Shown here one piece after another: positions 3,860 through 64,000 of a DNA stretch of 64,000 bases; the stretch's first letter is position 1, and each line of letters starts with the position of its first letter. Position numbers and translations under genes: made by a program. The notes beneath the pieces were generated by a model that saw only the letters and a program-made list of their open reading frames with translations, was not told the DNA's origin and ran no database searches. Source of the stretch: an uncultured Bacilli bacterium (GTDB lineage: Bacteria; Bacillota_I; Bacilli_A; RF39; UBA660); NCBI GenBank assembly GCA_947589105.1, contig CANQBL010000001.1, forward strand, positions 131,973 through 195,972, given 5' to 3'.

Positions 3860-6800
3860 ATGAACTCGAGAATGGAAAAGTTTAAAATAAGTTTTAAAGA
3901 TTGGTTAGCTATACAAAAAATAAGAATAAAAAATTTTGTTGAAGAGCATAAATATATATCTTCGTTTATTGGTGTATTTTTGATATCTTCTTTAGTTGCT
4001 TTAATAGTATACGCTGCTGATACAGATAAATATGCTGGTCAAGTTTCGGCTACTGCGTCGGTAACTCAAAAAAGCTCACAATCAACAGAAGAAATAACAA
4101 CTGCTAAAAGTTTTAGTACCATAGTGTACGATGTTGATTATTTGTTATCGATAAGTGATTTGCCTATGGATGAAACAGTTGTAAGGGACGAGGTTGTAGT
4201 CCAAGCCTCTTTTAATGATAAAATCGATGCTGAATGGGTTACATATAATGATATAACCTCAAATTATGAGTTATCAGATGATGGTAGAACTTTAACCGTA
4301 AAACTATATGGAGGTACCAAAGTTGGAACTTCAAACAGTTTGCAATTATATTTAAACACAAGAAACATACCTAATGGTACCGAGTTAAAAACAAACTTTA
4401 AAATCAAAGAATCAACCTCATCAAATTTTACTGAACTTGGAGAAAAAAAGATAACAATAGAAAGTGAAAAAGTTGATTTAGAAACAAAAGTGGTTTCTGG
4501 AACCGCTTATAAATCAAATGATTATAGCGAAGGAAGGTATGCTCCTTTTGGAATATTAGTAGGTTTTGATAAAAGTAAATTGAAAAACCAAAATAGTTTA
4601 GAAGGTTTATATTTTGATTCAAACGTAAGTGTTATTTTAGAAGCAATTCAATCAGTTAATAATGTTAACACTCAAATAGAACTTGAAACTGAAAAACAAC
4701 AATATTTTGGCTTATATGATAAATCAACAGGTTTACTAGGTTCAATGCCTCATTATCAAAGGGATGTTTCTGATTTTTCAGTTTATAACTCAGGAACAGT
4801 TAAAAACCTTACAAAATCAAATAGTGGAGTATCAGGAGAAGTAACTGAAAATACAAATCCAGATTTATATTTAATTGGTGATAAAACAATAAACTTAGAG
4901 CAAGGAGAAGAATACACTGAATATGGTGTATCAGCAACAGATCATGGCTATGATATATGTAAAGAAAGAAATAATTTATGTAAGAAAACGATAACCAAAA
5001 AAGGTAATGGTGAAACTTCAGTTGAAGAAAAAAATATAACTAAAGAAGTTGGAGATTATGTTGTTAGTTATGAGTATACCTCGAAAACAGGTGTTACAAC
5101 GGTTAAAAGAAACGTCAAAGTAACCTCAAAAACAACCGTTAGTGTAGGAGAGGATTCTTATTCATTAAATGGTAATAAAGAAATCACTTTGGTAAAAGGT
5201 GAAAAATATGAAGAAAAAGGTATTAGTAAAAACGGTGTTAATGCTTCGGAATACGAGATATCTATTAAAAAGAATGGTTCGGAAGACCCAATAGAATCGG
5301 TTAATACTAATGAAGTTGGTACTTATACCATTACTTACACGATTAAATCTCAGCCAGAGTTCCAACAACAATCAGCAACTTTAACAAGAACGGTTAAGGT
5401 TGTTGAAAGTTTGACTTATACAAAAGCTCCAACTCTTACTGCAAGCACTATTTACGCACCGTCTGATGGTTCTGTTCTTGATAATCCTTATATAAAAATA
5501 GATTCTCAAGATAAAGAATGTAATTCTGAAAATAAATGTTCGGTAAAATATTATGATCTAGCCTCAAATGAGGAAGTACACTTTGATAAAACAAAGGTAG
5601 GTACTTATAAAGCAGTTTATACGGTAACTGATGAAAATGGTTTTGAAATACAAGCTGAAAATACCATTAACATACAAACTAAATATGATTTTAACATTGA
5701 AGGAATAAAATCAGATGGAAAAATAGATTTGTATGGTGATAATTTTGTTTCACTTGGTTCATATTTTGTAAATGCAAAATCAATTCGTAATGAAGGAGTA
5801 ACAACAGACATTTTAGTAAATTTAACTGCAAGTATTAAAAAAGCAGATGGCGGATTTAACTCTAGTACATCAGATAAAGCTGCTGTTAATAAAAATTATT
5901 CTGCAGGAACGAAAAATAATACACTTTCTTTTAATACTGATGAATCTGGAGATTTACAACGATTATCTAGTAATGATTATTTAGCTTACGGTGAAGAAGT
6001 AATACTAAGATCTAGGTTTACTTATTCAAATGATGGTGATGAGGCGATTAATAAGTTAACAACTACTATTCCAATTTTACCGTTTACAATGGTTGAATAT
6101 ACTTCTAGAATTGAAGATAAAGAACCATACTATATTAATGAAGAATATAATGATAAGGTAAATGTTAAGTATTATGCATGTGAAGTTGATGATTCAAAAA
6201 CAGCTTGTAGTGATTCTGAAGTATCTGAATATGATTCATTTGCTTCATTAAATGATGCTTTAAACTCAAACGAAAATCTTAAATTGTCTTATTTAACTTA
6301 TACATTAGAAAATGTTGCACCAGGATCAATAATTGATTTTAGAGTTAGATTAGTTACTAGTGTTAATAACCAAAAAGATATAATAACTTTAACAACTAAA
6401 TCAGAATATGATGAAAAAGGAGAAAGTAGTTTATCAAATCCTACGGCAATAACTGGTAACGCTTCTATAAATATAACCCCTTTTAAAGCAAGAACAAGAG
6501 TGTATATTGATGAAATGGAGCAAGATGTCATAATAAATGGTGCTAATACTTCTAGCTCTACATGGTCAATATATCCTTCTGTTAGTTTACCGATAGAAGA
6601 GATAAATACTAACGCGGCTGGAATAAATGCGCTAAAAACAGTTACAATTACAGTTGAATTGCCAGAAGGTATTAATTATGTATATGACGAAAGATACAAT
6701 ATACCAAAAGTAAGTGGCAGAACTTTAACATATGTTTTAGAAGGTAAAAAAGTTAATGAATGGATAGATCCTATTTACTTTGTTACAAATTATAATATTG

Positions 6801-8323
6801 ATATTCCTTCTGGAACTGAAAAAGAAGTAAAAGTATTAATTGATGCCGAAACTCCTGATGGTATAAAGGATTCTTCTACTAAAGATTTAAGAACGACGAT
6901 AAGGAAAATAACTTATCAAAATAATGAGAAAATAGCACGTTCACAGTATACAACCACTCCAACAATATCAAAGGAGACCCCTTTTAATATAAGTACAAAA
7001 ATTTATAATAATGATAGTGCTAAAGTTTCACACTCAAATTTGGATATTATAACTTTGCTTCCTTATAATGATATAAGTAATGAAAATAAGACTTATACTG
7101 GAACGTACACAATTTCAAATCTACCTCAAAATACTTTATGTACGGCAGGTCTTCCAAGTTTGATAAAAGACTCTAACTTGCTTTCAGAAGGTGAAATTAT
7201 ATGGGAAGATTGTACTAAATATAAAATAGAAAATAATAGTTACTCTGGGGTTACTGCAATTAAGATTCCATCTATATCTTTACAATCAGATCAAACCTAT
7301 GAACATTCTATAACAATTACTCCTTTTGGAAATAAATCTGATGATAAATATACATTAAAATCTTACTTAGTAATGAATGAAGATAACAGAGTAAGACAAT
7401 TTAATGATGTAACAGTAGAGGTTTTTAGTAAAAAAATAACTGGTATTGTATGGGAAGATTTTGATGATAATGGAATCATGGATAATGAAGAAAAAAGAAT
7501 TTCTGATGTAACTTTAAAATTGTATGATTCTAATACCAATGAGTTTATAACATCAACTCTTTCTGATAAAACTGGAAATTATACTTTATCTGATTTAAAT
7601 CCTGGCACATACTACGTTGTTGCTGAGTACAATACTGCTAAATATGGTTTAACTCAGCCAAATGCATCTTATAATAGGTCAGTTTCTTCTTCGTTTAGCT
7701 CTGTTGATACTGGTATTTCATCTAAAGGTGACGAAATAATAAGTAAAGAAGATAAAAAATTAGAAGATTCACCAACTACTGCAGTAATTAAAACTGATAA
7801 CATTACAATAACTAATGATACTAAAATTGTTAGTGATATTAACTTAGGATTATCACTTAAAAAATCTTATGCGGTAAAATTAACGAAATATGTAAGTAAA
7901 GTTATAACAACAAATAATCTTGGTATTTCAACCATAAAGGACTATGGTAATGTTTCATTGGCTAAGTTAGATGTAAAGGATATAAATAATCTTAGTATAA
8001 AAGTAATTTATACCATAGAATTAGAAAATGTTGGATATTATCCTGGTTATATTTATGCCATAAGAGATTATATTCCTGATGGAATGAAATTTAATGAATC
8101 TTACGAAGAAAATAAGGGCTGGGTAGTAACAAAAGATGATTATTTGGAAAATGATACTTTATCAAATGAATTAGTATATGAAGGAGATAAAAAATATCTT
8201 ACTATAGCTTTTGATATAACTCGTAAAGAGGCCGGATCATTTATTAATTTTGCTTCTGTAGAGGATGATGATTTGCAAATCTTAAGTGTAGCAGCAAATC
8301 AAGGAGGTAATGATAATGAATAA
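3860..8323 (+). CDS. Giant cell-surface protein (about 1487 aa): N-terminal signal-anchor TM, three tandem Ig-like DUF5011-type domains, a CnaB/SdrD-B-type domain, C-terminal DUF11 repeat domain
   Basis: Start set at the ATG at 3860 (GGAGGA plus 8 nt). TM segment FIGVFLISSLVALIVYAA. Three repeats of about 95 aa share the pattern G(D/E)xxYxLxxGxxYxExGxSAxD. CnaB-like segment GIVWEDFDDNGIMDNEE...LKLYDSNT...TGNYTLSDLNPGTYYV. DUF11-like segment LSIKVIYTIELENVGYYPGYIYAIRDYIPDGMKF. No LPXTG. Confidence 0.7.
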   Translation: MNSRMEKFKISFKDWLAIQKIRIKNFVEEHKYISSFIGVFLISSLVALIVYAADTDKYAGQVSATASVTQKSSQSTEEITTAKSFSTIVYDVDYLLSISDLPMDETVVRDEVVVQASFNDKIDAEWVTYNDITSNYELSDDGRTLTVKLYGGTKVGTSNSLQLYLNTRNIPNGTELKTNFKIKESTSSNFTELGEKKITIESEKVDLETKVVSGTAYKSNDYSEGRYAPFGILVGFDKSKLKNQNSLEGLYFDSNVSVILEAIQSVNNVNTQIELETEKQQYFGLYDKSTGLLGSMPHYQRDVSDFSVYNSGTVKNLTKSNSGVSGEVTENTNPDLYLIGDKTINLEQGEEYTEYGVSATDHGYDICKERNNLCKKTITKKGNGETSVEEKNITKEVGDYVVSYEYTSKTGVTTVKRNVKVTSKTTVSVGEDSYSLNGNKEITLVKGEKYEEKGISKNGVNASEYEISIKKNGSEDPIESVNTNEVGTYTITYTIKSQPEFQQQSATLTRTVKVVESLTYTKAPTLTASTIYAPSDGSVLDNPYIKIDSQDKECNSENKCSVKYYDLASNEEVHFDKTKVGTYKAVYTVTDENGFEIQAENTINIQTKYDFNIEGIKSDGKIDLYGDNFVSLGSYFVNAKSIRNEGVTTDILVNLTASIKKADGGFNSSTSDKAAVNKNYSAGTKNNTLSFNTDESGDLQRLSSNDYLAYGEEVILRSRFTYSNDGDEAINKLTTTIPILPFTMVEYTSRIEDKEPYYINEEYNDKVNVKYYACEVDDSKTACSDSEVSEYDSFASLNDALNSNENLKLSYLTYTLENVAPGSIIDFRVRLVTSVNNQKDIITLTTKSEYDEKGESSLSNPTAITGNASINITPFKARTRVYIDEMEQDVIINGANTSSSTWSIYPSVSLPIEEINTNAAGINALKTVTITVELPEGINYVYDERYNIPKVSGRTLTYVLEGKKVNEWIDPIYFVTNYNIDIPSGTEKEVKVLIDAETPDGIKDSSTKDLRTTIRKITYQNNEKIARSQYTTTPTISKETPFNISTKIYNNDSAKVSHSNLDIITLLPYNDISNENKTYTGTYTISNLPQNTLCTAGLPSLIKDSNLLSEGEIIWEDCTKYKIENNSYSGVTAIKIPSISLQSDQTYEHSITITPFGNKSDDKYTLKSYLVMNEDNRVRQFNDVTVEVFSKKITGIVWEDFDDNGIMDNEEKRISDVTLKLYDSNTNEFITSTLSDKTGNYTLSDLNPGTYYVVAEYNTAKYGLTQPNASYNRSVSSSFSSVDTGISSKGDEIISKEDKKLEDSPTTAVIKTDNITITNDTKIVSDINLGLSLKKSYAVKLTKYVSKVITTNNLGISTIKDYGNVSLAKLDVKDINNLSIKVIYTIELENVGYYPGYIYAIRDYIPDGMKFNESYEENKGWVVTKDDYLENDTLSNELVYEGDKKYLTIAFDITRKEAGSFINFASVEDDDLQILSVAANQGGNDNE

Positions 8324-53821: not shown

Positions 53822-55143
53822 GTTACTATTACAGTTGTTGGTATACCTCTTGTTTTATGCCTTAAGGCAGAATCAACAGGATCATTTATATAACAATAAT
53901 TATCAGTACAATCACTTTTATATTTTAATGCTTCCTCTTTAGGAAGAACCATAACGGTAGATGTTCCGCCATCTAAGTTTGCAGCGTTAATAGCACCATA
54001 ATTACTCATTATTTCGGTTAAATCACCCATATCAGCACCTTTTGTTCTAGTAGAATTACTATTAACTACTAATAGTAAAATTATACCATCACTTCTTTGA
54101 CCAATTGCGGTTCTTGCAGCGTATCCCCATCCGCCATTACCTTTAATGAATGATTTTTTACCGTTAACTATTAAAAATGGTCCCCATGATACCCCATCAC
54201 GTACGTTCATACTTTTTGCTTTATAAGCAGTAGCATTTTTAATTAGAACTAACTTATTATCATAAGTCATGCCTATTAAACCACCAGATTGAGCATCAGC
54301 TGAGTAAGTATTATCAGTTATTACCTTACCATTTGATATGGTAACTCCAGTTGGTCTACCACCAGTTTGATTATCAGGAGCATTACTAAATCCGCCACCA
54401 TTTACTGCTAATAAAGCTTGGTTATTTTCTGCTATTTTAGTTGCGTACTGGCCATATCTTCCAACACCATTAGACACTGCAACTTTTACTTTGCTTGGGT
54501 CATATACGGCTGCTAAATAAGCTTTTTGACCATTAACTTCTAATTCAATTATTTTATATGCAGCATCTTTATCTCTTTTTAGTATTTGCTTTTCATACTC
54601 GTTAGCATAAGTTTCTTCTTCTTGCATATCAATTAAATCAGTATCAGTATCTTCTTCTATTTCTTTAGTATAATTACCCTTAATTACTTTATTTATTTCT
54701 TTATCACTATAAAACCATTTACATATGTATTGATGACTCATCGTATTCATAGACGTAGAAATAAACCAAGTTCTAAATTTATCATTTGGACCATATAACA
54801 AAAATATTAAAGATGCACATCCAATTATATAAGCAGTTATAAACAAAGTAAACAAAATCTTTTTAATTTTTTTCTTTTTAGATTTTTTACTATCATCTTT
54901 TTTAATAATGAAAAAACTTAGTAATAATAAATAAAATAATAAAGATAAAATAATGTAAATAATATAATTAACTGGTATTGGAATTAATCTATTAGAATGA
55001 GTTGAAATAATCGTTAAACATATTAAAATTGGTATAAATAATAATGGTAATGTTCGTAATAAAAAACGTTTCTTATTTTTTTTATGATGATTAACTTTTA
55101 TATCATTAAAGTCCAATATTTCAGTATAATTATTATCTTTCAT
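53815..55143 (-). CDS. Membrane-anchored phosphodiester glycosidase-family protein (NAGPA/DUF2233-like)
   Basis: Three N-terminal TMs. C-terminal domain with ALLAVNGGGF...GPFLIVNGKK...NLDGGTST pattern typical of the phosphodiester glycosidase family. Confidence 0.5.
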   Translation of the reverse strand: MKDNNYTEILDFNDIKVNHHKKNKKRFLLRTLPLLFIPILICLTIISTHSNRLIPIPVNYIIYIILSLLFYLLLLSFFIIKKDDSKKSKKKKIKKILFTLFITAYIIGCASLIFLLYGPNDKFRTWFISTSMNTMSHQYICKWFYSDKEINKVIKGNYTKEIEEDTDTDLIDMQEEETYANEYEKQILKRDKDAAYKIIELEVNGQKAYLAAVYDPSKVKVAVSNGVGRYGQYATKIAENNQALLAVNGGGFSNAPDNQTGGRPTGVTISNGKVITDNTYSADAQSGGLIGMTYDNKLVLIKNATAYKAKSMNVRDGVSWGPFLIVNGKKSFIKGNGGWGYAARTAIGQRSDGIILLLVVNSNSTRTKGADMGDLTEIMSNYGAINAANLDGGTSTVMVLPKEEALKYKSDCTDNYCYINDPVDSALRHKTRGIPTTVIVTK

Positions 55144-55205
55144 AGTATCACCAACTTAATTATACGAAATACTACAAAATTTAACAATATTTTTTTTGAA
55201 TTTTG

Positions 55206-55214
55206 TGCTATAAT
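55206..55214 (+). promoter_or_regulatory. Extended -10 promoter (TGcTATAAT) for ssrA
   Basis: TGCTATAAT ends 18 nt upstream of the tmRNA 5' GGGG. No good -35 element. Confidence 0.5.
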
Positions 55215-55232
55215 ATCATTTGTTATTTATAT

Positions 55233-55595
55233 GGGGCTGTTATTGGGTTCGACGGAAAGTAGGAATCTAAAGTTGCAAGTGGAAGGCACACCTTACGTGC
55301 AAACAAAAATAAATAACAAAACAAATAATTATGCTTTTGCAGCTTGCGCTGCCTAGTCTTTAATAGAAAAAGCGCTTCTTTTTAAGTTTTACTCACGGAC
55401 TTTTTAAGAGGCTCATTTAAGTGAGTTATATTATTCTTTTTGTTTAGGAAAGAATAACGAATTTTACTAAACTCGTTATTTGGTGGGTATGTTAGTTACC
55501 TTTATCATTTAATTAAATTTAATTACTAACTAAACTTGTAGAGACTATAGCGGAATACTTTTCGGACACGGGTTCAAATCCCGTCAGCTCCACCA
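55233..55595 (+). ncRNA. ssrA: tmRNA (SsrA), about 363 nt with encoded CCA
   Basis: 5' GGGGCUGUUAUUGGGUUCGACGG and 3' GGACACGGGUUCAAAUCCCGUCAGCUCCACCA form a 7-bp acceptor stem with G3-U. Internal tag ORF ends ...NNYAFAACAA-TAG at 55354-55356. Immediately downstream of smpB. Confidence 0.92.
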
Positions 55596-55606
55596 TTGGG
55601 AAATCT

Positions 55607-55624
55607 GTTCGAACTATTCGAACT
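55607..55624. repeat. Palindromic/direct TTCGAAC repeat (tGTTCGAACtaTTCGAAC) 12 nt after the tmRNA 3' end
   Basis: GTTCGAAC is self-complementary and TTCGAAC is repeated after a 2-nt spacer. Candidate recombinase crossover site. Confidence 0.3.
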
Positions 55625-55690
55625 TTTGATATAGGAATCAATCGAAAGATTGGTTTTTTCTTTTGTTAGAAAAAATCATAGTCGGAAAGG

Positions 55691-55975
55691 TTGGTGTCTA
55701 TGGTAAATGTAATCAAAAAAGAAATTGATATGGAAGAATCTTTAAAGAAAAGAATTGAGATTATTTGTGATTTTTGTAATACTACTCCAACATTTATCAA
55801 TGGTAGTATTCGTAAAATTGATAAGACAAACTTATCTTATATCGAACCTCATAGAATAATCATTAATAACAATATATTTCTTGCCTTTAATTATTCTAAT
55901 GAAATCTATATCAATAACTTAAGTAAAAAGATTAAAATATCAGAACTTGAAAACTATATTAAGACTATGAACTAA
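55691..55975 (+). CDS. Hypothetical protein (94 aa), first gene of the island
   Basis: ORF with GGAAAGG RBS. Contains CDFCNTTP. No recognised domain. Confidence 0.4.
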   Translation: MVSMVNVIKKEIDMEESLKKRIEIICDFCNTTPTFINGSIRKIDKTNLSYIEPHRIIINNNIFLAFNYSNEIYINNLSKKIKISELENYIKTMN

Positions 55976-56119
55976 TACTTTATACCACGAATAAGACATA
56001 GACAAAATGAAAATTTTGTTGTATTATGTAAATGATTTAAAAAGACTTACCGAGAAGTAAAAGTATTAGTTAGTAGTACCTTTACTTCTCTTTTTTTGAA
56101 AATAAGAAAAAGGAGATGA

Positions 56120-58081
<1,962 letters not shown>

Positions 58082-58180
58082 TAATTTCTTCTACATTTTA
58101 TGTAATTTTGTTTTATTACGAAGTTTTAAAACAATATGGAATAAAGTAGAACGGATTCTAAGGTGTCCTTAGCCCACGAG

Positions 58181-58242
58181 GGTATTTTGATGCCTGTGTC
58201 AAAATACCTAGGGGGTTACATATTTTGACGATGCCAAAATAT
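58181..58242 (+). promoter_or_regulatory. Candidate oriT: two adjacent hairpins upstream of the relaxase gene
   Basis: GGTATTTTGA-tgcctgtg-TCAAAATACC is a 10-bp perfect inverted repeat whose loop contains GTGTG. It is followed by ATATTTTG-acgatgc-CAAAATAT. Confidence 0.45.
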
Positions 58243-58271
58243 AGTCTAAAGAAAGGAGCGTGATTTATAAT

Positions 58272-59651
58272 ATGGAACTTGCCTATTCACTACATTTAGG
58301 TAGTGACAAAAATAAGAAAAATGTATCAAGAGCAACAGCAAAAGCTAATGCTAGTGGAACAACATCTCTATCAAATAATGCAATACAAAATGCTCAAGGA
58401 TTATCAAGAGTTGATAAACACAATTATAGAAAATATGATAACAATCAAGAAAATATTGAAATTATAAGAGGTACTTCTTCTTTATTTGATGATGTTAAAA
58501 GATTATATAAAGATGAATTTGAAGAAGCAAGACTTGAATATAATGCTAGACAAACAAGAGATAATAGAAAAATAAATGATTATTTCACTCATATAAGCAA
58601 TAGTTCAAAAAGTGATCTTGCTTGTGAAATAATCATTGAACTTGGAAAAAAGAAATATTGGGATACTAAAGATATGGAATTTAAAAAACGAATGACAAAT
58701 GTTTTTAAAGAACAAGTTAACGATTTAGCAATACTCGTTCCAAATTTTAAAATAGCAAGTGCAATTATTCATTATGATGAAACTAGTCCACATCTTCATA
58801 TTGTTGGTGTACCTGTTAAAATTGGTGGTAAAAATGGTATGAAAAAACAAGTTGGAAAAACTGAAGTGTTTACAAAAGAATCACTTCGCAAATTGCAAGA
58901 TAAAATGAGAATTTTATGTATTGAAGAATTTAATAAAGAATATGGATTAAATGATAAATTAAAAATGAAAAAGAAAGGTAGAAATAAAGATTATTATATA
59001 TCTGAAATGGATAATTATGAACAAATGCAAGAACAACTAGAAAAAAATCAAGAAAAGTTAGAAATAGCAAGTAAAAAAGCCATAGAACTTGATAATTCTT
59101 CTAAAGAAGTAAAAGATATTATAAATGATTTAAAAACTACTATAACATCTAAAGAAAAGTATGTGTTAAAACAAGAAGATAAAGATAAATTAGTATCTTA
59201 TATTAATTCAGTTAGTAAAACAAATGAAGAATTTAAACAAACTCAAACTTTATCAGTTACATTAAGTAATGTTGATGAGGAATTAAAAGAAAATCGTGAA
59301 AAGATTAAATTACTAACTGAAAACAATGAAGCACTTACTTTAAGAGTTGAAACACTTACTAAAAATGTGAAAACTAAAGATAAAGAGATAGATAAATTAA
59401 AAGAGGAAAACTGTTCTTTAAAATCTAGTCTTGAACATTTGATAAATAAATTTACTAATTTAATTAAACTTATTAAAAATAAGATATTCTCTAAACAGGA
59501 TACAAGAGAAAAATATATGGAGTTTTCAAGAGATTTATATACTCATGGTATCATTGATGATAAAGAGATAACTGATATTAAAGAGGATTATGATTATTGT
59601 AAAAATCGTGATAATGACAAAGACAAAGATGATTTTGAGATAGAAATATAG
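58272..59651 (+). CDS. mob: MobM/Mob_Pre-family plasmid recombination relaxase
   Basis: HxDE(x)TPHxH metal-binding motif (IIHYDETSPHLHIVGVPV). N-terminal HNYRKYD region. Long C-terminal coiled coil. Start set at the ATG at 58272; an upstream GTG at 58260 abuts the RBS. Confidence 0.8.
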   Translation: MELAYSLHLGSDKNKKNVSRATAKANASGTTSLSNNAIQNAQGLSRVDKHNYRKYDNNQENIEIIRGTSSLFDDVKRLYKDEFEEARLEYNARQTRDNRKINDYFTHISNSSKSDLACEIIIELGKKKYWDTKDMEFKKRMTNVFKEQVNDLAILVPNFKIASAIIHYDETSPHLHIVGVPVKIGGKNGMKKQVGKTEVFTKESLRKLQDKMRILCIEEFNKEYGLNDKLKMKKKGRNKDYYISEMDNYEQMQEQLEKNQEKLEIASKKAIELDNSSKEVKDIINDLKTTITSKEKYVLKQEDKDKLVSYINSVSKTNEEFKQTQTLSVTLSNVDEELKENREKIKLLTENNEALTLRVETLTKNVKTKDKEIDKLKEENCSLKSSLEHLINKFTNLIKLIKNKIFSKQDTREKYMEFSRDLYTHGIIDDKEITDIKEDYDYCKNRDNDKDKDDFEIEI

Positions 59652-59719
59652 TAATAAATATCAAAAAGAGTTAAAAAAGTTAAAAAATATGTTATAATGT
59701 AAATGCAAGGGAGGTTTAT

Positions 59720-60646
59720 ATGATTATATTTCTAGGAATTGTTGGGGAACTTGCTACTGTTATAGGTAGTGTTGTTATAACTCTTAATGCTGGACTTGAT
59801 TCAATATTAGAGATTTCAAAAAATGGTTACAAAATTGAAAAAAGTGTGTTAGATGAATTTCAAAAGAAACAAGCTGAAGAAAAAAAACAAAAATCTAATT
59901 TAGCTAATAAAATTTTGGGAACTGTTTTATTACTTGTACCTGGTATTAATTTGATAAATGCCAGTGTAAAAGGTGCTAAAGTTAAAAAATCAGTAATGAA
60001 TGATCCACAAATTAAAGAAGCCATTGTTCCTATGACTGAAGAAGAAAAAGAACAATATGCTAAAATGGAAGGTAAATTACAAAAATTAACATTTACTGCT
60101 TTTACTGCATCAAAAGAAAGCGAAGAAGAATTTTTCGGATTTATTGGGAAAAGACCTATTATTGTAGATCACGGATTAACTTCTTTATATTATGAACCAT
60201 TAATGTCATTGGATTATACATTAGATGAAGTAAAAAGATTAAATGAGGCAACTACTTATTCATATAGAATTGGTAAAATTGGTGATAAAAATGTTGCAAT
60301 TATTGGTATTCCAAATCCAGATAGTCCTGTTAGTAGAATTCAATTAAAATCAGAGGATTATAAAATAACACACACTTACGAAAAAATGACTGAAGAAGAA
60401 GCACAAGACAAGACATTTACAGTATATCCATTTATGTCAGAAACAAATGAAAAGGTACAAGAAGTTGTTGAAGAAATTAAACAATCACGAATTGATTTAG
60501 CTACTAAAGCTAATCTAGAAGCCTTACAAACACACTCTATATTTGAACCAGAAGTTATTCCAATAGAAACTGAACAAGTTTTATCAGATGAACAACAAGG
60601 GCCAAGATTAGTAAAAACAATACGCCCACAAAACGAGAAAAAGTAA
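59720..60646 (+). CDS. Hypothetical protein (308 aa), two N-terminal hydrophobic segments plus an acidic soluble domain
   Basis: GGGAGG RBS. Hydrophobic segments IIFLGIVGELATVIGSVVITL and ILGTVLLLVPGINLI. No recognised domain. Confidence 0.45.
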   Translation: MIIFLGIVGELATVIGSVVITLNAGLDSILEISKNGYKIEKSVLDEFQKKQAEEKKQKSNLANKILGTVLLLVPGINLINASVKGAKVKKSVMNDPQIKEAIVPMTEEEKEQYAKMEGKLQKLTFTAFTASKESEEEFFGFIGKRPIIVDHGLTSLYYEPLMSLDYTLDEVKRLNEATTYSYRIGKIGDKNVAIIGIPNPDSPVSRIQLKSEDYKITHTYEKMTEEEAQDKTFTVYPFMSETNEKVQEVVEEIKQSRIDLATKANLEALQTHSIFEPEVIPIETEQVLSDEQQGPRLVKTIRPQNEKK

Positions 60647-60867
60647 AAAATGAATTGCTACTTTTTCTTTTTTTTGATAAACTATAATTAGTGATTGATT
60701 CTTAAACCAGTTACCTTTGGAAAAAGTTGTAGATAACTTTCTCAACCGCACCAGATTGATACCAAACTCTAACTATTATAGTTCGGGTTTTATAATGTTT
60801 TAATGTATGTTATAATTTTTATATATTGAATTAATATATTTTCTACTTTAGAAAATAAAATAGCTTA

Positions 60868-61776
60868 TTGACCAATCAATATATAAAAGAAGAGGTGCTG
60901 TTTATGCTTGTAAAAAATTGTATTAATTTTATTATAATTGGAATAACCTTGCTTTCAATACCAATACTTATTTATTCTATAAAGAACAAAAATAAAAGTA
61001 TTTTAATTTTAGATACAATGTATATAGTATATTTATTTTTAAGTATAGCTATTTTGCCTAATATTTTAGGCTTAGATCGTGGATTAGAAGTTTTATTTAC
61101 ATATCTCATGTCTTTTATAGCAGGAATAATCTATATAGTATCTATTGTAGTGTGCAAAAAAAAGATTAAGAAAAATAATGATAAAAGTATGAAATCCAAT
61201 AAAATAAATTTTGTAACTAGTGTATTAATAATTTTACCAATTTTATTATTTTCCTTTAGTTTTTTAAGAGAATGTTACTTAATAAAGAAAAGTGATTTAA
61301 TAATTGAATCTAACTATCAAGACGGAATTATTATTTCCGAAACATCTTGGTATGCAATTTCAGAAAATTTTTGTAAAGAAATTACTATTAATTTACCAAT
61401 TCTCAACCCAAATAATAAAAATATAAAATATTATACATACTATGTTTATTTTAAAAACGATTCTTACGAAATAGAAAGTTATATTGATTCTGAATTGAAG
61501 CATATTGATGAACAAATGATAAAAAAAATTTTGTTGGATGCGAAAAATAATCATAGTAATTTAAATAAAAAATATTCGAATTTTGATTATATAATTAATA
61601 ATGCTACTATAACTTATTTTGAAAATAGTGGATATTATCATGTATCAATAGGATATACTAGAAATGGTAACGGAGGTATGTCAGTTGTAAATGAATTGAT
61701 ATATAAAAATGATAAATATATTGGTGAATTATTAATACAAGGGGATATTAAATCAGTAACTTATATAGAAAAATAA
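60868..61776 (+). CDS. Hypothetical polytopic membrane protein (302 aa) with a C-terminal extracytoplasmic domain
   Basis: About four TM segments in the first 150 aa, then a Tyr/Asn-rich soluble domain. Island cargo. Confidence 0.45.
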   Translation: MTNQYIKEEVLFMLVKNCINFIIIGITLLSIPILIYSIKNKNKSILILDTMYIVYLFLSIAILPNILGLDRGLEVLFTYLMSFIAGIIYIVSIVVCKKKIKKNNDKSMKSNKINFVTSVLIILPILLFSFSFLRECYLIKKSDLIIESNYQDGIIISETSWYAISENFCKEITINLPILNPNNKNIKYYTYYVYFKNDSYEIESYIDSELKHIDEQMIKKILLDAKNNHSNLNKKYSNFDYIINNATITYFENSGYYHVSIGYTRNGNGGMSVVNELIYKNDKYIGELLIQGDIKSVTYIEK

Positions 61777-61855
61777 AAAAGATTACTTTTTAAATCTAAA
61801 TTACGAGATAAAAATAAAACTACTTATCAAAATTAATTTGAAAGTAGTTTTATTT

Positions 61856-62278
61856 TTACCATCTTGTATTATCAATTATTAAATCTTTAGGTAAAGCTAA
61901 TAATTCATTATGTTTAACATTAACTATTTTGTTTGCTATATTAAAAATAGTAAAAATAGATAGTTCATCAAAGTTATTCATTTTTTCCATCATTAACTCC
62001 CAAATTTCATCACTTCTTATTAAATCTAGTGTCTTATATCCTTTTTCAGTCAAACATTTAATTTTATGTTCTTTAAATACATCATTATCATCATAGCTAG
62101 TTTTATCAAGCACAGTTAAATAATGTTCTTTATTAAACAAAGTTACTATAGTTAATACATCTTCAATAGAAAAATCTGATATTTTTTCCTGAAGCTGTGC
62201 AACAGTTAGAGTTTCGCCATAAGGAATTTTTTCAACTTCTAATAAAATTTTTCTAGCACAATTATTATTTATTTTCAT
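61856..62278 (-). CDS. Hypothetical small protein (140 aa), possible winged-helix/YjcQ-like fold
   Basis: Opposite strand to the rest of the island. N-terminus MKINNNCARKILLEVEK... resembles small wHTH phage/island proteins. Weak call. Confidence 0.35.
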   Translation of the reverse strand: MKINNNCARKILLEVEKIPYGETLTVAQLQEKISDFSIEDVLTIVTLFNKEHYLTVLDKTSYDDNDVFKEHKIKCLTEKGYKTLDLIRSDEIWELMMEKMNNFDELSIFTIFNIANKIVNVKHNELLALPKDLIIDNTRW

Positions 62279-62412
62279 AAAATCATTTTCTCCTTCAAAA
62301 TAATTATAACATAATTAGCTTAAAAGTTTTAATAATTTTAAAATATATGATATTATTGTTAACAGATGATTAATATTTTTTTTTACAGAAAAATCTAGAA
62401 GTAGGTAGTTTT

Positions 62413-63573
62413 ATGAGACAAAATTTTTTGACAGAATATTTTTATAAAAAAGAATATAAGTATATGTATTTAAGTATATTTTTATATAACTTTGCAAATG
62501 CATTAAGTGAAACTTTTGGAACGGTAATGTTATATAAAGCTGGATTACCTATACATATAATATTGTTAATATATGGTATTAGATTTTTGATTATGGGTTT
62601 AATAACTCCTTTATTTATTACTATATCTAATAAAGTTGGTGTTGCAAAATGTGTGCTAGTTTCAAATATATTTAATATCATTTATGCATACTTTTTATTA
62701 ATTAACAAAAATTTAACATCAAATATAATCATATTTGTAATAGCTATGGGCTTAAATGGGTTATCTAACCCATCTTCAGATTCATTATCTAGTAAATATG
62801 TAGACACTAATCATAGAGGAAAGTTTAATAGTTTATATAGTATTAGTAAAATATTAGGTACAGTATTAGCAAGCTGTTTGGTTGCTTGGGGAGTTATAAA
62901 TAATAATACATTTATATTATTTATTATACTTTCAATTTTCTTTTTTCTTCAATATTTAGCAATATTAAAAATAGACTACAAACCTAAGAAAAAAACAAGT
63001 ATATTTAAAGCTAGTATAAAATATTTAATTAATAGTAAGAGTAAATATAAAATTATATATGCTTTAAGAACTAACCATATAATAGAAAGACAGTTTGTTC
63101 CATTATATTTATATTTAATACTAAAGGATTTTAAAGCTTTTTCTTTAGTTACTATAGTATCACTTTTATTTCAAACTATAACTATTATTTTAATAGGAAA
63201 ATATACAGATAAAAATATTAAAAAATCAAATGATTTAGTTACTATTATTAAAGGAAGTATTACATTAGTATATTTATTTATAAAAAATAAATTTATTATT
63301 TCAATAAATAAAACTGTTAGTGATAATGTATCAAAAGTATATGAAACATCAATACAAACTTCAATTCAAAATATTATTAAAGAATCAAAAGAAGATAATG
63401 ATTTATTATCTTCTGTAGGACAAATGAGTTTGTGCTTTACTGAAGTTATTATATTTTTAATATTATCAATATTAACAAAATTCATAGGGCAGAAAGTATT
63501 CTATGTAATATTTATATTATCTATAATTTCAACGGTTCTTATAAATATTAACATTAAAAAGGAGTTTATTTGA
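62413..63573 (+). CDS. Polytopic membrane protein, MFS-transporter-like (about 12 TM)
   Basis: 386 aa, highly hydrophobic. The loop after TM2-3 contains D...RGKF, which resembles MFS motif A. Island cargo. Confidence 0.45.
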   Translation: MRQNFLTEYFYKKEYKYMYLSIFLYNFANALSETFGTVMLYKAGLPIHIILLIYGIRFLIMGLITPLFITISNKVGVAKCVLVSNIFNIIYAYFLLINKNLTSNIIIFVIAMGLNGLSNPSSDSLSSKYVDTNHRGKFNSLYSISKILGTVLASCLVAWGVINNNTFILFIILSIFFFLQYLAILKIDYKPKKKTSIFKASIKYLINSKSKYKIIYALRTNHIIERQFVPLYLYLILKDFKAFSLVTIVSLLFQTITIILIGKYTDKNIKKSNDLVTIIKGSITLVYLFIKNKFIISINKTVSDNVSKVYETSIQTSIQNIIKESKEDNDLLSSVGQMSLCFTEVIIFLILSILTKFIGQKVFYVIFILSIISTVLININIKKEFI

Positions 63574-64000
63574 TAAAATATAGTACTCTATTTATAGAAT
63601 TGAATTGTTTAATTATTTGTTTATTGTTAACTTTTACATTACTTTAACTATCGCTTCTTTACTGTCTTAAAAGAGATTACTGTTAAATCTATAATCTTTA
63701 TTACATCAATTGGTTTCATTTTAGAAATCTTAATAATTGGTAATAAGCTTGATATAATTGTTACAATAAATTCTATTAAATAAATCAATATAATTTTCTT
63801 ATTCTTAGTATGAAAGGAGTTAAAATTATATTTATTTCCGACACAAAAAAGCGTTAAGAAGTATGCAAAATATAAATGTTACTTGAAATTACATGCGTTG
63901 ATAAAGTACTTTTTTTATGATATATTAAGCAAGTAATATGCTTTGTATAAAAAATATCTGATTTTAAAAAATTAGCTACTATTTATAAAATTTAAATTAG

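Follow-up and report, generated by a model that had tools for sequence, protein, structure and literature searches.

A probable MOBV-type origin of transfer upstream of a Mob_Pre relaxase gene in a mobilizable island behind the tmRNA gene of an uncultured Bacilli bacterium

The known transfer origins (oriT) closest in plan to the locus reported here are those of MOBV relaxases. In plasmid pMV158, the minimal oriT consists of an inverted repeat (IR1) and 8 nucleotides (nt), the relaxase MobM contacts AAGtaTAGTGTG, and the nick G3595/T3596 was mapped experimentally in TGTG/TTATAC, with a copy of the left-arm sequence located 3' of it (PMC5863519). The relaxase MobSag cleaves GTGCG/TT (PMC5090054). 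Plasmid pFR12 shares rep and/or mob similarity with pTX14-3, for which Mob- and oriT-dependent mobilisation is documented (PMC6199540); no paper giving a mapped nick site for plasmids of the pTX14-3 type was found. The clostridial mobilizable transposons Tn4451/Tn4453 and Tn6215 combine, in a small integrative mobilizable element, a large serine recombinase, MobV and an oriT (RSA) upstream of the MobV gene, and lack mating-pore genes; Tn4451 recombines at a 2-bp identical sequence common to its att sites (PMC5704250). Here, a locus of this kind is described in a 64,000-nt stretch of DNA from an uncultured Bacilli bacterium (contig CANQBL010000001.1; the whole stretch is called the window). Positions 58149-58253 are very probably, at roughly 85 to 90%, the oriT for the relaxase gene mob of the Mob_Pre family that follows them, in a 5.2-kb mobilizable island after the transfer-messenger RNA (tmRNA) gene. 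The parts of the module and of the gene behind it are listed by position in the window; HP0 denotes a small hairpin, IR an inverted repeat and aa amino acids.

58149-58253, + strand: oriT-like module (HP0, IR-A, nick motif and IR-C), about 100 nt, described by covariance model R1
58153-58175, + strand: HP0, small hairpin, GGATT-CTAAGG (58158-58163)-tgt-CCTTAG (58167-58172)-CCC
58181-58208, + strand: IR-A, hairpin of 10 perfect pairs, GGTATTTTGA (58181-58190) and TCAAAATACC (58199-58208), with the 8-nt spacer TGCCTGTG
58209-58219, + strand: predicted nick motif TAGGGGG/TTAC between the hairpins, 11 nt, TAGGGGGTTAC
58220-58242, + strand: IR-C, hairpin of 8 bp with a 7-nt loop, ATATTTTG (58220-58227) and CAAAATAT (58235-58242)
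58198-58229, + strand: IR-B, possible alternative pairing of the IR-A right arm with the IR-C left arm, GTCAAAATA (58198-58206) and TATTTTGAC (58221-58229)
58255-58258, + strand: GGAG ribosome-binding site of mob, 13 nt before ATG 58272
58272-59651, + strand: mob, MOBV (Mob_Pre) relaxase of 459 aa, Pfam PF01076

Two of the three hairpins had been named in a sequence-only reading of the window, and both were found: the perfect 10-bp inverted repeat with an 8-nt loop, which is IR-A, and a second hairpin sharing a core with the first, which is IR-C, the common octamer TATTTTGA lying at 58183-58190 in the former and at 58221-58228 in the latter. The gap between them measured 11 nt (58209-58219), not 12 nt as given in that reading, which had also missed HP0 and the IR-B pairing. 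The IR-A stem could be extended to 12 pairs via T58191.G58198 and G58192.T58197, leaving a 4-nt loop, CCTG, and the invariant TAGGGGGTTA was located directly 3' of IR-A, ahead of IR-C. Model R1 had its sole match within the window at 58149-58253 (92 bits), and equivalent modules were found at 89 related places (50 to 114 bits). A 123-nt stretch of the region folded better than shuffled sequences on the two strands (z = -3.8 and -3.6). Perfect inverted repeats of at least 10 bp were frequent in the window, about 15 distinct ones or 27 with nested ones, compared to about 3 in Markov-1 simulations with nested ones counted, and most of them look terminator-like; the region is special because it is conserved and covaries in relatives, not because of the repeat itself.

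The linkage of the module to mob was observed in two samples. The protein-first sample comprised 16 genome loci with Mob relatives, from uncultured gut "Bacilli" or Tenericutes-like metagenome-assembled genomes, e.g., Clostridium sp. CAG:433, and the count was restricted to the 11 loci including an intact Mob N-terminus (51-95% identity). In 10 of the 11, the module was located 45-300 nt upstream of mob on the same strand, with one common plan: GGATTCTAAGG, loop and CCTTAGCCC, then a hairpin, (C)CTAGGGGGTTA and a second hairpin. Locus L018, considered as a counter-example having a Mob relative and no module, was rejected as a decayed copy. There, at 5770-7340, tRNA-Leu and the left end of the element run into a mob frame broken by stops, and the recombinase and oriT are gone.

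The motif-first scan used DNA only, searching metagenome and viral contigs for CCTTAGCCC N20-45 TAGGGGGTTA, a pattern of which the right arm of HP0 is part and the left arm is not. It gave 126 loci, including 16 unrelated chance matches, mostly G+C-rich, and 110 genuine ones. A Mob_Pre gene starts 45-300 nt downstream of the module in about 106 of the 110 genuine loci; of the other four, two are cut off, one has lost an internal part of mob, and one, with 316 nt available, is unclear. Three loci considered as lacking mob were found to encode it, two of them (L064 and L089) having been an artefact of segment choice and the third (L105) having been cut short at 142 nt of downstream sequence. In L033 (minus strand, downstream of the motif), oriT was kept and mob was internally deleted, the N-terminal residues being joined to the C-terminal ...DHDDFDLEI. 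Four loci (L006, L027, L091, and L120) showed the module about 260-300 nt upstream of mob, versus 45-100 nt elsewhere; the extra stretch in L006 contains a sequence similar to a ribosome-binding site, which hints at a small open reading frame (ORF) between oriT and mob, possibly for an accessory protein.

The arrangement was also present upstream of a Mob_Pre gene in six plasmids. In a blastn search with the intergenic DNA, small MOBV plasmids matched 58183-58229: pDx14.2, pFR12, and others from the Bacillus cereus group, and Terrisporobacter plasmids. In these, the core ATTTTGA-loop-TCAAAATAcCTAtAGgGTTAc lies 70-110 nt upstream of mob, and no recombinase gene stands beside mob in the annotated flanks. 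A Leptotrichia plasmid had a hairpin and then TAGGGAG/TTAC upstream of mob, i.e., the same plan with different arms, and no recombinase beside mob either. The sequence-only reading had taken the region as strongly suggestive of a functional oriT, and this part of it was supported, with the module travelling with mob and its core occurring in plasmids that show no recombinase gene beside mob; the assignment of the nick to a hairpin loop, treated below, did not.

The Mob_Pre gene that had been placed directly downstream was confirmed by Pfam, with 46.4 bits versus the cut-off of 25.5 (E = 5.3e-12). Its start is ATG 58272, not GTG 58260, and homologues of 459 aa showed 100% query coverage from this ATG. 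The motifs H50-N51-Y-R53 (HxxR) and H167-Y-D-E-T-S-P-H174-L-H176 (HxDExxPHxH) were invariant across 8 diverse sequences, in an alignment that includes a MOBV1 member as well as relatives encoded on plasmids of Bacillus, Terrisporobacter, Leptotrichia, and Fusobacterium. The sole match in the Protein Data Bank was the MobM relaxase domain 4LVI (E = 8e-4 for the single sequence by phmmer and 3.3e-7 with a profile), and in BLASTP against a MOBV1 relaxase just 52 residues around motif III were aligned. Because of this short alignment and the unrelated oriT arms, the relaxase is classed as MOBV but not MOBV1. More than 7,800 Mob homologues were found at E <= 1e-5, the top matches listed being mostly from ENA and Logan assemblies.

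For the nick site, a 46-nt query that we take to be the pMV158 oriT was used; it is a real sequence, occurring at 100% identity in several plasmids, and in pSA8589 it precedes mobV. The nick regions, anchored by eye on G/TTA, read as follows.

pMV158-type (pSA8589): ATAAAGTA TAGTGTG/TTATAC TTTA
Window, predicted: CAAAATACC TAGGGGG/TTACAT ATTTTGA
Bacillus plasmids: CAAAATACCTA TAGGG/TTACGT, variant TATAGGG/TTAC
Terrisporobacter plasmid: TAGAG/TTAAAT, variant TATAGAG/TTAA
Leptotrichia plasmid: TAGGGAG/TTACCC

The region is likely to be an oriT with its nick in TAGGGGG/TTA rather than in the IR-A loop, and the bond between G58215 and T58216 of the + strand is the somewhat favoured candidate for the exact cut by the relaxase. 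The predicted nick would fall 7 nt beyond the 3' end of IR-A; from it to the mob ATG there are 56 nt, compared with 54 nt from nick to start in pSA8589. All 10 of the protein-selected relatives with the module have the motif unchanged or one base off. A copy of the left arm, TATTTTGA, follows the predicted nick as it does in pMV158, and the IR-B pairing would put the nick motif in a 14-nt loop, as in pMV158 IR2. We infer from this likeness that IR-A is the relaxase-binding hairpin equivalent to IR1. Neither GTGTG nor GTGCG was found on either strand of 58150-58260, which argues against membership in MOBV1 group A and not against a mechanism of the MOBV type. The oriT would work like that of pMV158 while standing outside the MOBV1 group, with no GTGTG, unrelated arms and a distant relaxase.

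The two hairpins flanking IR-A and the nick motif differ in how they are conserved. In HP0, the stem sequence is invariant and the loop varies: helix 1 was 99.8% paired in the 89 sequences, with loops of 3-9 nt. The stem was unchanged in relatives whose relaxases go down to about 43% identity, and plasmid relatives have another G+C-rich hairpin in its place. The fixed stem with a varying loop suggests that HP0 is a sequence-specific recognition site for a protein. IR-C was kept within the module family and absent from the Bacillus plasmids. HP0 and IR-C may make additional contacts with proteins, end the transfer, or regulate the expression of mob.

Covariation was observed in the module family with a covariance model built from 20 in-register sequences, to which the 89 sites were aligned. 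An alignment of 87 oriT regions by MAFFT was discarded, having the IR-A left arm out of register between subgroups, and pairs were not counted in it. Alignment to a model leans to the structure of the model, and slid and shuffled controls were used for that reason. Cells were paired at 90%, versus 83% in shuffles and 30-52% with the 3' partner slid; 11 pairs were changed on both sides, a number reached by 1 of 500 shuffles, and the covariation score was 0.192, versus 0.071 in shuffles (0 of 500 reached 0.192). In IR-A, 6 of 11 pairs covary, for example, T-A to C-G in 17 sequences, and one position is T-A, A-T or G-C. In IR-C, 5 of 8 pairs change on both sides, and in HP0, with its invariant stem, covariation was never seen. 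IR-B was not retained as a supported pairing, being 85% paired mostly from sequence conservation, with 4 covarying pairs versus 3.9 expected; it is a possible pairing. In well-paired columns, G.T pairs outnumbered A.C pairs 101 to 8, an observed strand bias which shows the fold to be specific to the + (mob-coding) strand. Such a fold fits the single-stranded DNA of the transferred strand, or RNA, and does not fit a double-stranded palindrome.

The alternative that survives best, although it is unlikely, is that the hairpins act in RNA, as a leader or processing site controlling mob translation or the stability of a recombinase-mob transcript. The covariation and the coding-strand excess of G.U-compatible pairs fit RNA as well as single-stranded DNA, the end of IR-C lies 12 nt ahead of the GGAG ribosome-binding site, and a scan of the + strand gave no sigma-70-like promoter between the genes, which makes co-transcription plausible. 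On the other hand, Rfam gave zero family matches for the region, strict invariance such as that of TAGGGGGTTA and the HP0 stem is typical of DNA recognised by protein, and the homology of the nick motif, the hairpin spacing and the spacing to the mob start match mapped MOBV1 origins. An RNA role and an oriT role need not exclude each other; in pMV158, oriT overlaps the mobM promoters and operator (PMC5863519).

It is very unlikely that the region is an oriT nicked at a GTGTG/T exposed in the IR-A loop (58191-58198), as the sequence-only reading had proposed. The spacer TGCCTGTG with the next T does read TGTGT, similar to the pMV158 GTGTG/T, and DNA folding leaves CCTG or TGCCTGTG unpaired. The GTGTG claimed for the loop is, however, absent, the text there reading CCTGTGTC, and the IR-A apex is the least conserved part of the module, varying in sequence and length (GAA, GTA, CTTG, GCA, TCT, others, or inserts of 11-12 nt). 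In the Bacillus and Terrisporobacter relatives, the apex is TAGTG, TAGCG or CTTG, with no GTGT, and the conserved element is TAGGGGGTTA, 3' of the hairpin. The precedent had also been misplaced: the nick mapped in pMV158 is 8 nt 3' of IR1 and not in a hairpin loop, and footprinting, in which the predicted IR2 loop was not observed, did not support the model that places the nick there (PMC5863519).

A terminator of the upstream recombinase gene is less probable still. The recombinase stop codon (58081) does precede the hairpins by 77-160 nt, and most of the other perfect inverted repeats in the window resemble terminators. Furthermore, most motif-selected loci carry a recombinase gene directly upstream of the module, so that the motif sample alone cannot separate an oriT from a terminator. 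The separation comes from the plasmids and from locus L030, in which the core or module precedes mob and the recombinase is not upstream. This alternative, which had been named as hairpins conserved without mob, was examined in the window as well: none of the three hairpins has a T run after it, TAGGGGG and AGTCTAAAG following instead, the module goes with mob, and a terminator scan of 57900-58400 gave zero terminator-like sites. A better candidate is the perfect 13-bp inverted repeat AGAAGAAATTATT / AATAATTTCTTCT at 58060-58092, which spans the recombinase stop codon and is possibly a weak terminator or a regulatory site separate from oriT.

An att or res site of the serine recombinase, or a single-strand replication origin, is equally improbable: the repeat-rich region adjoins the recombinase gene, and Mob_Pre proteins were first described as enzymes of site-specific recombination at RSA sites, which coincide with oriT, but the element junctions are elsewhere (55595/55596 and 60753/60754), the module occurs in plasmids with no serine recombinase in the annotated mob flanks, and no ssoA-type RSB/CS-6 motif was seen by eye against the ssoA consensus, with no formal search.

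Several points weigh against the assignment of 58149-58253 as the oriT of mob. Both CCTTAGCCC and TAGGGGGTTA were fixed by the motif-first pattern, and the unbiased conservation is that of about 10 protein-selected loci and 6 plasmids. Kinship among the sequences inflates the covariation counts, 64 of the G.T pairs came from one column, and the covariation is equally compatible with a single-stranded DNA hairpin or an RNA hairpin in the recombinase-mob transcript, between which it cannot tell. The relaxase is only distantly related to MobM, with about 30 aa inserted ahead of HNYR, so that the nick position carried over from pMV158 may be a few bases out. No conjugative element that could act as helper was identified.

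With 58149-58253 taken as the oriT, we infer excision, nicking at a defined position and the use of a helper in the following order. The recombinase would excise the element as a circle. The relaxase would then recognise IR-A, extruded as a hairpin on the + strand that encodes mob, and with it the adjoining single-stranded DNA on the 3' side, and by analogy with pMV158 MobM would cut the + strand within the invariant TAGGGGG/TTA at G58215/T58216. His50 of HNYR would be the nucleophile, with the metal held by HYDETSPHLH, and the nicked strand would leave through the mating channel of a conjugative element resident in the same cell.

The element that carries the module, and its surroundings, comprise the following features.

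About 55596-60753, + strand: integrative mobilizable element of about 5.2 kb, with five ORFs in all; contains orf94, recombinase, oriT, mob and orf308
55233-55595, + strand: tmRNA (ssrA) gene, Rfam RF00023, 154.7 bits, intact; its CCA end is the left junction
55596-55625, + strand: left end of the element, TTGGGAAATCTGTTCGAACTATTCGAAC..., where similarity to relatives begins sharply
55691-55975, + strand: conserved ORF of 94 aa at the left end, inside the block common to relatives, no Pfam match
56126-58081, + strand: large serine recombinase, putative integrase/excisionase, Pfam Resolvase and Recombinase, weak Zn_ribbon_recom
59720-60646, + strand: cargo ORF of 308 aa, variable between relatives
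60654-60753, + strand: conserved right end, ...GTTGTAGATAACTTTCTCAACCGCACCA, about 100 nt, common to many loci

Similarity to relatives starts at about 55570-55596, stops at about 59692-59698 (about 45 nt after mob) and resumes at 60654. The sequence left of the element, considered as a truncated tRNA, was shown by Rfam to be the 3' end of an intact tmRNA gene, and a search for a second copy of it and for tRNA direct repeats gave none. ARAGORN did not report the tmRNA at 55233-55595. A listed ORF of 90 aa (55084-55356) overlaps the 5' part of the tmRNA and ends in ...NNYAFAACAA; it looks like the frame of the tmRNA tag peptide rather than a real protein gene. At other loci, the same left end follows the CCA of different tRNA genes. 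A position matrix from 13 right ends gave 60726-60753 (...CTCAACCGCACCA) a score of 22.6 bits and no other site in the window more than 6.3, and CACCA is present at both junctions, 55595/55596 and 60753/60754. The predicted circular junction is ...CTCAACCGCACCA-TTGGGAAATCTG... and the predicted empty site ...GTCAGCTCCACCA-GATTGATACC... The 94-aa ORF could be a regulator or a directionality factor. No mating-pore genes were found in the element, and its gene content follows the canonical layout of those integrative mobilizable elements that pair a serine recombinase with MobV.

Family members were found directly after the CCA of tRNA genes for Leu-CAA, Leu-CAG, Arg-CCT, Thr-CGT, Thr-TGT, Met-CAT, Gly-TCC, and Gly-GCC. 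Left ends lie at tRNAs in L005-L010, L016, L033, L040, L051-L053, L058, L097, L098, L107, and L121 and at tmRNA in L013 and L120; in the loci checked, the tRNA 3' end was not duplicated further along the fetched stretch. Genes for tRNAs ending in ...GCTCCA tend to pair with right ends in ...GCTCCA, and those in ...GCACCA with right ends in ...GCACCA. In the window, GATTGATACCAAACTCTAACTATTATAGTTCGGG stands directly after the right end, from 60754 onward, a sequence that elsewhere follows the CCA of a tRNA or tmRNA or the right end of another element. It looks as if another, different element in tandem had its left end here and its right end outside the window; genes of this region (60754-64000) include one for a DUF2513 protein (61856-62278, minus strand). 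Two members or two ends in tandem (right end, CACCA, left end) were seen in L064, L089, L008, and L086, which fits accretion at one target or assembled circular junctions.

According to the Islander database paper, no targeting of tRNA genes is known for integrases of the serine family (PMC4383910). In Dehalococcoides, islands with the serine recombinase DsiB have as their target the 3' part of ssrA, the tmRNA gene, and form tandem arrays (PMC3146451); these ssrA-specific islands were the only precedent found for such targeting by a serine integrase. A wider reading is held only tentatively: the element may belong to a very abundant, apparently undescribed family of mobilizable elements of 5-9 kb in uncultured gut Bacilli, whose large serine recombinase would insert them exactly after the CCA of many tRNAs (Leu, Arg, Thr, Met, and Gly) and of tmRNA, with only the CACCA/CTCCA core common to the junctions and with tandem pile-up, and whose oriT would form a MOBV sub-type of its own, marked by a G5 nick motif and by an accessory hairpin on either flank.

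That a Mob_Pre gene is preceded by a MOBV transfer origin is ordinary, expected biology. What the locus adds is a concrete predicted nick site (G58215/T58216) and a consensus of about 100 nt for a MOBV clade for which no oriT description was found in the literature searched. With the more than 7,800 Mob homologues listed, the oriT model could help to annotate mobilizable islands in uncultured gut Bacilli. The element may also extend the targeting of tRNA and tmRNA genes to serine integrases, which bears on how island finders define islands.

Among the known systems, the closest in plan are the oriT of pMV158 with MobM, the MOBV1 prototype, and oriT-Sag with MobSag of IMESag-rpsI. They share with the window an oriT directly upstream of the relaxase gene on the coding strand, a hairpin followed 7-8 nt later by a G/T nick (predicted in the window) inside TAGxGxG/TTA, a left-arm copy after the nick that allows an IR2-like pairing, a nick about 55 nt before the start codon, and a relaxase with HxxR and HxDExxPHxH. 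Unlike in pMV158, the arm sequences are unrelated, the window has GGGGG in place of GTGTG and no outer extension of the IR3 type, and its module has the additional invariant HP0 upstream and IR-C downstream. The relaxase, with its N-terminal insertion, is remote from MobM, and the element is chromosomal, not a rolling-circle plasmid.

The only relatives detectable at the DNA level among deposited plasmids were those of the pTX14-3 type in the Bacillus cereus group (pFR12 and pDx14.2) and pTPELB2 of Terrisporobacter, which have ATTTTGA-loop-TCAAAATAcCTAtAGgGTTAc...TTGAC at 70-110 nt upstream of the Mob_Pre gene. They differ from the window in having TATAGGG/TTAC for TAGGGGG/TTAC, a different, GC-rich upstream hairpin and no IR-C, in a Mob of about 30% identity, and in not being integrated.

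Tn4451/Tn4453 and Tn6215, judged by their description, belong to the same class of elements as the one in the window. In contrast to Tn4451, the window element family sits exactly after the CCA of tRNA and tmRNA genes. The Dehalococcoides islands are likewise serine-recombinase islands at the 3' part of the tmRNA gene and occur in tandem arrays; they differ in inserting in the T-loop, with a 20-bp direct repeat, in having no relaxase or oriT described and in using ssrA only, whereas the family of the window element has many tRNA targets too, with only CACCA or CTCCA common at its junctions.

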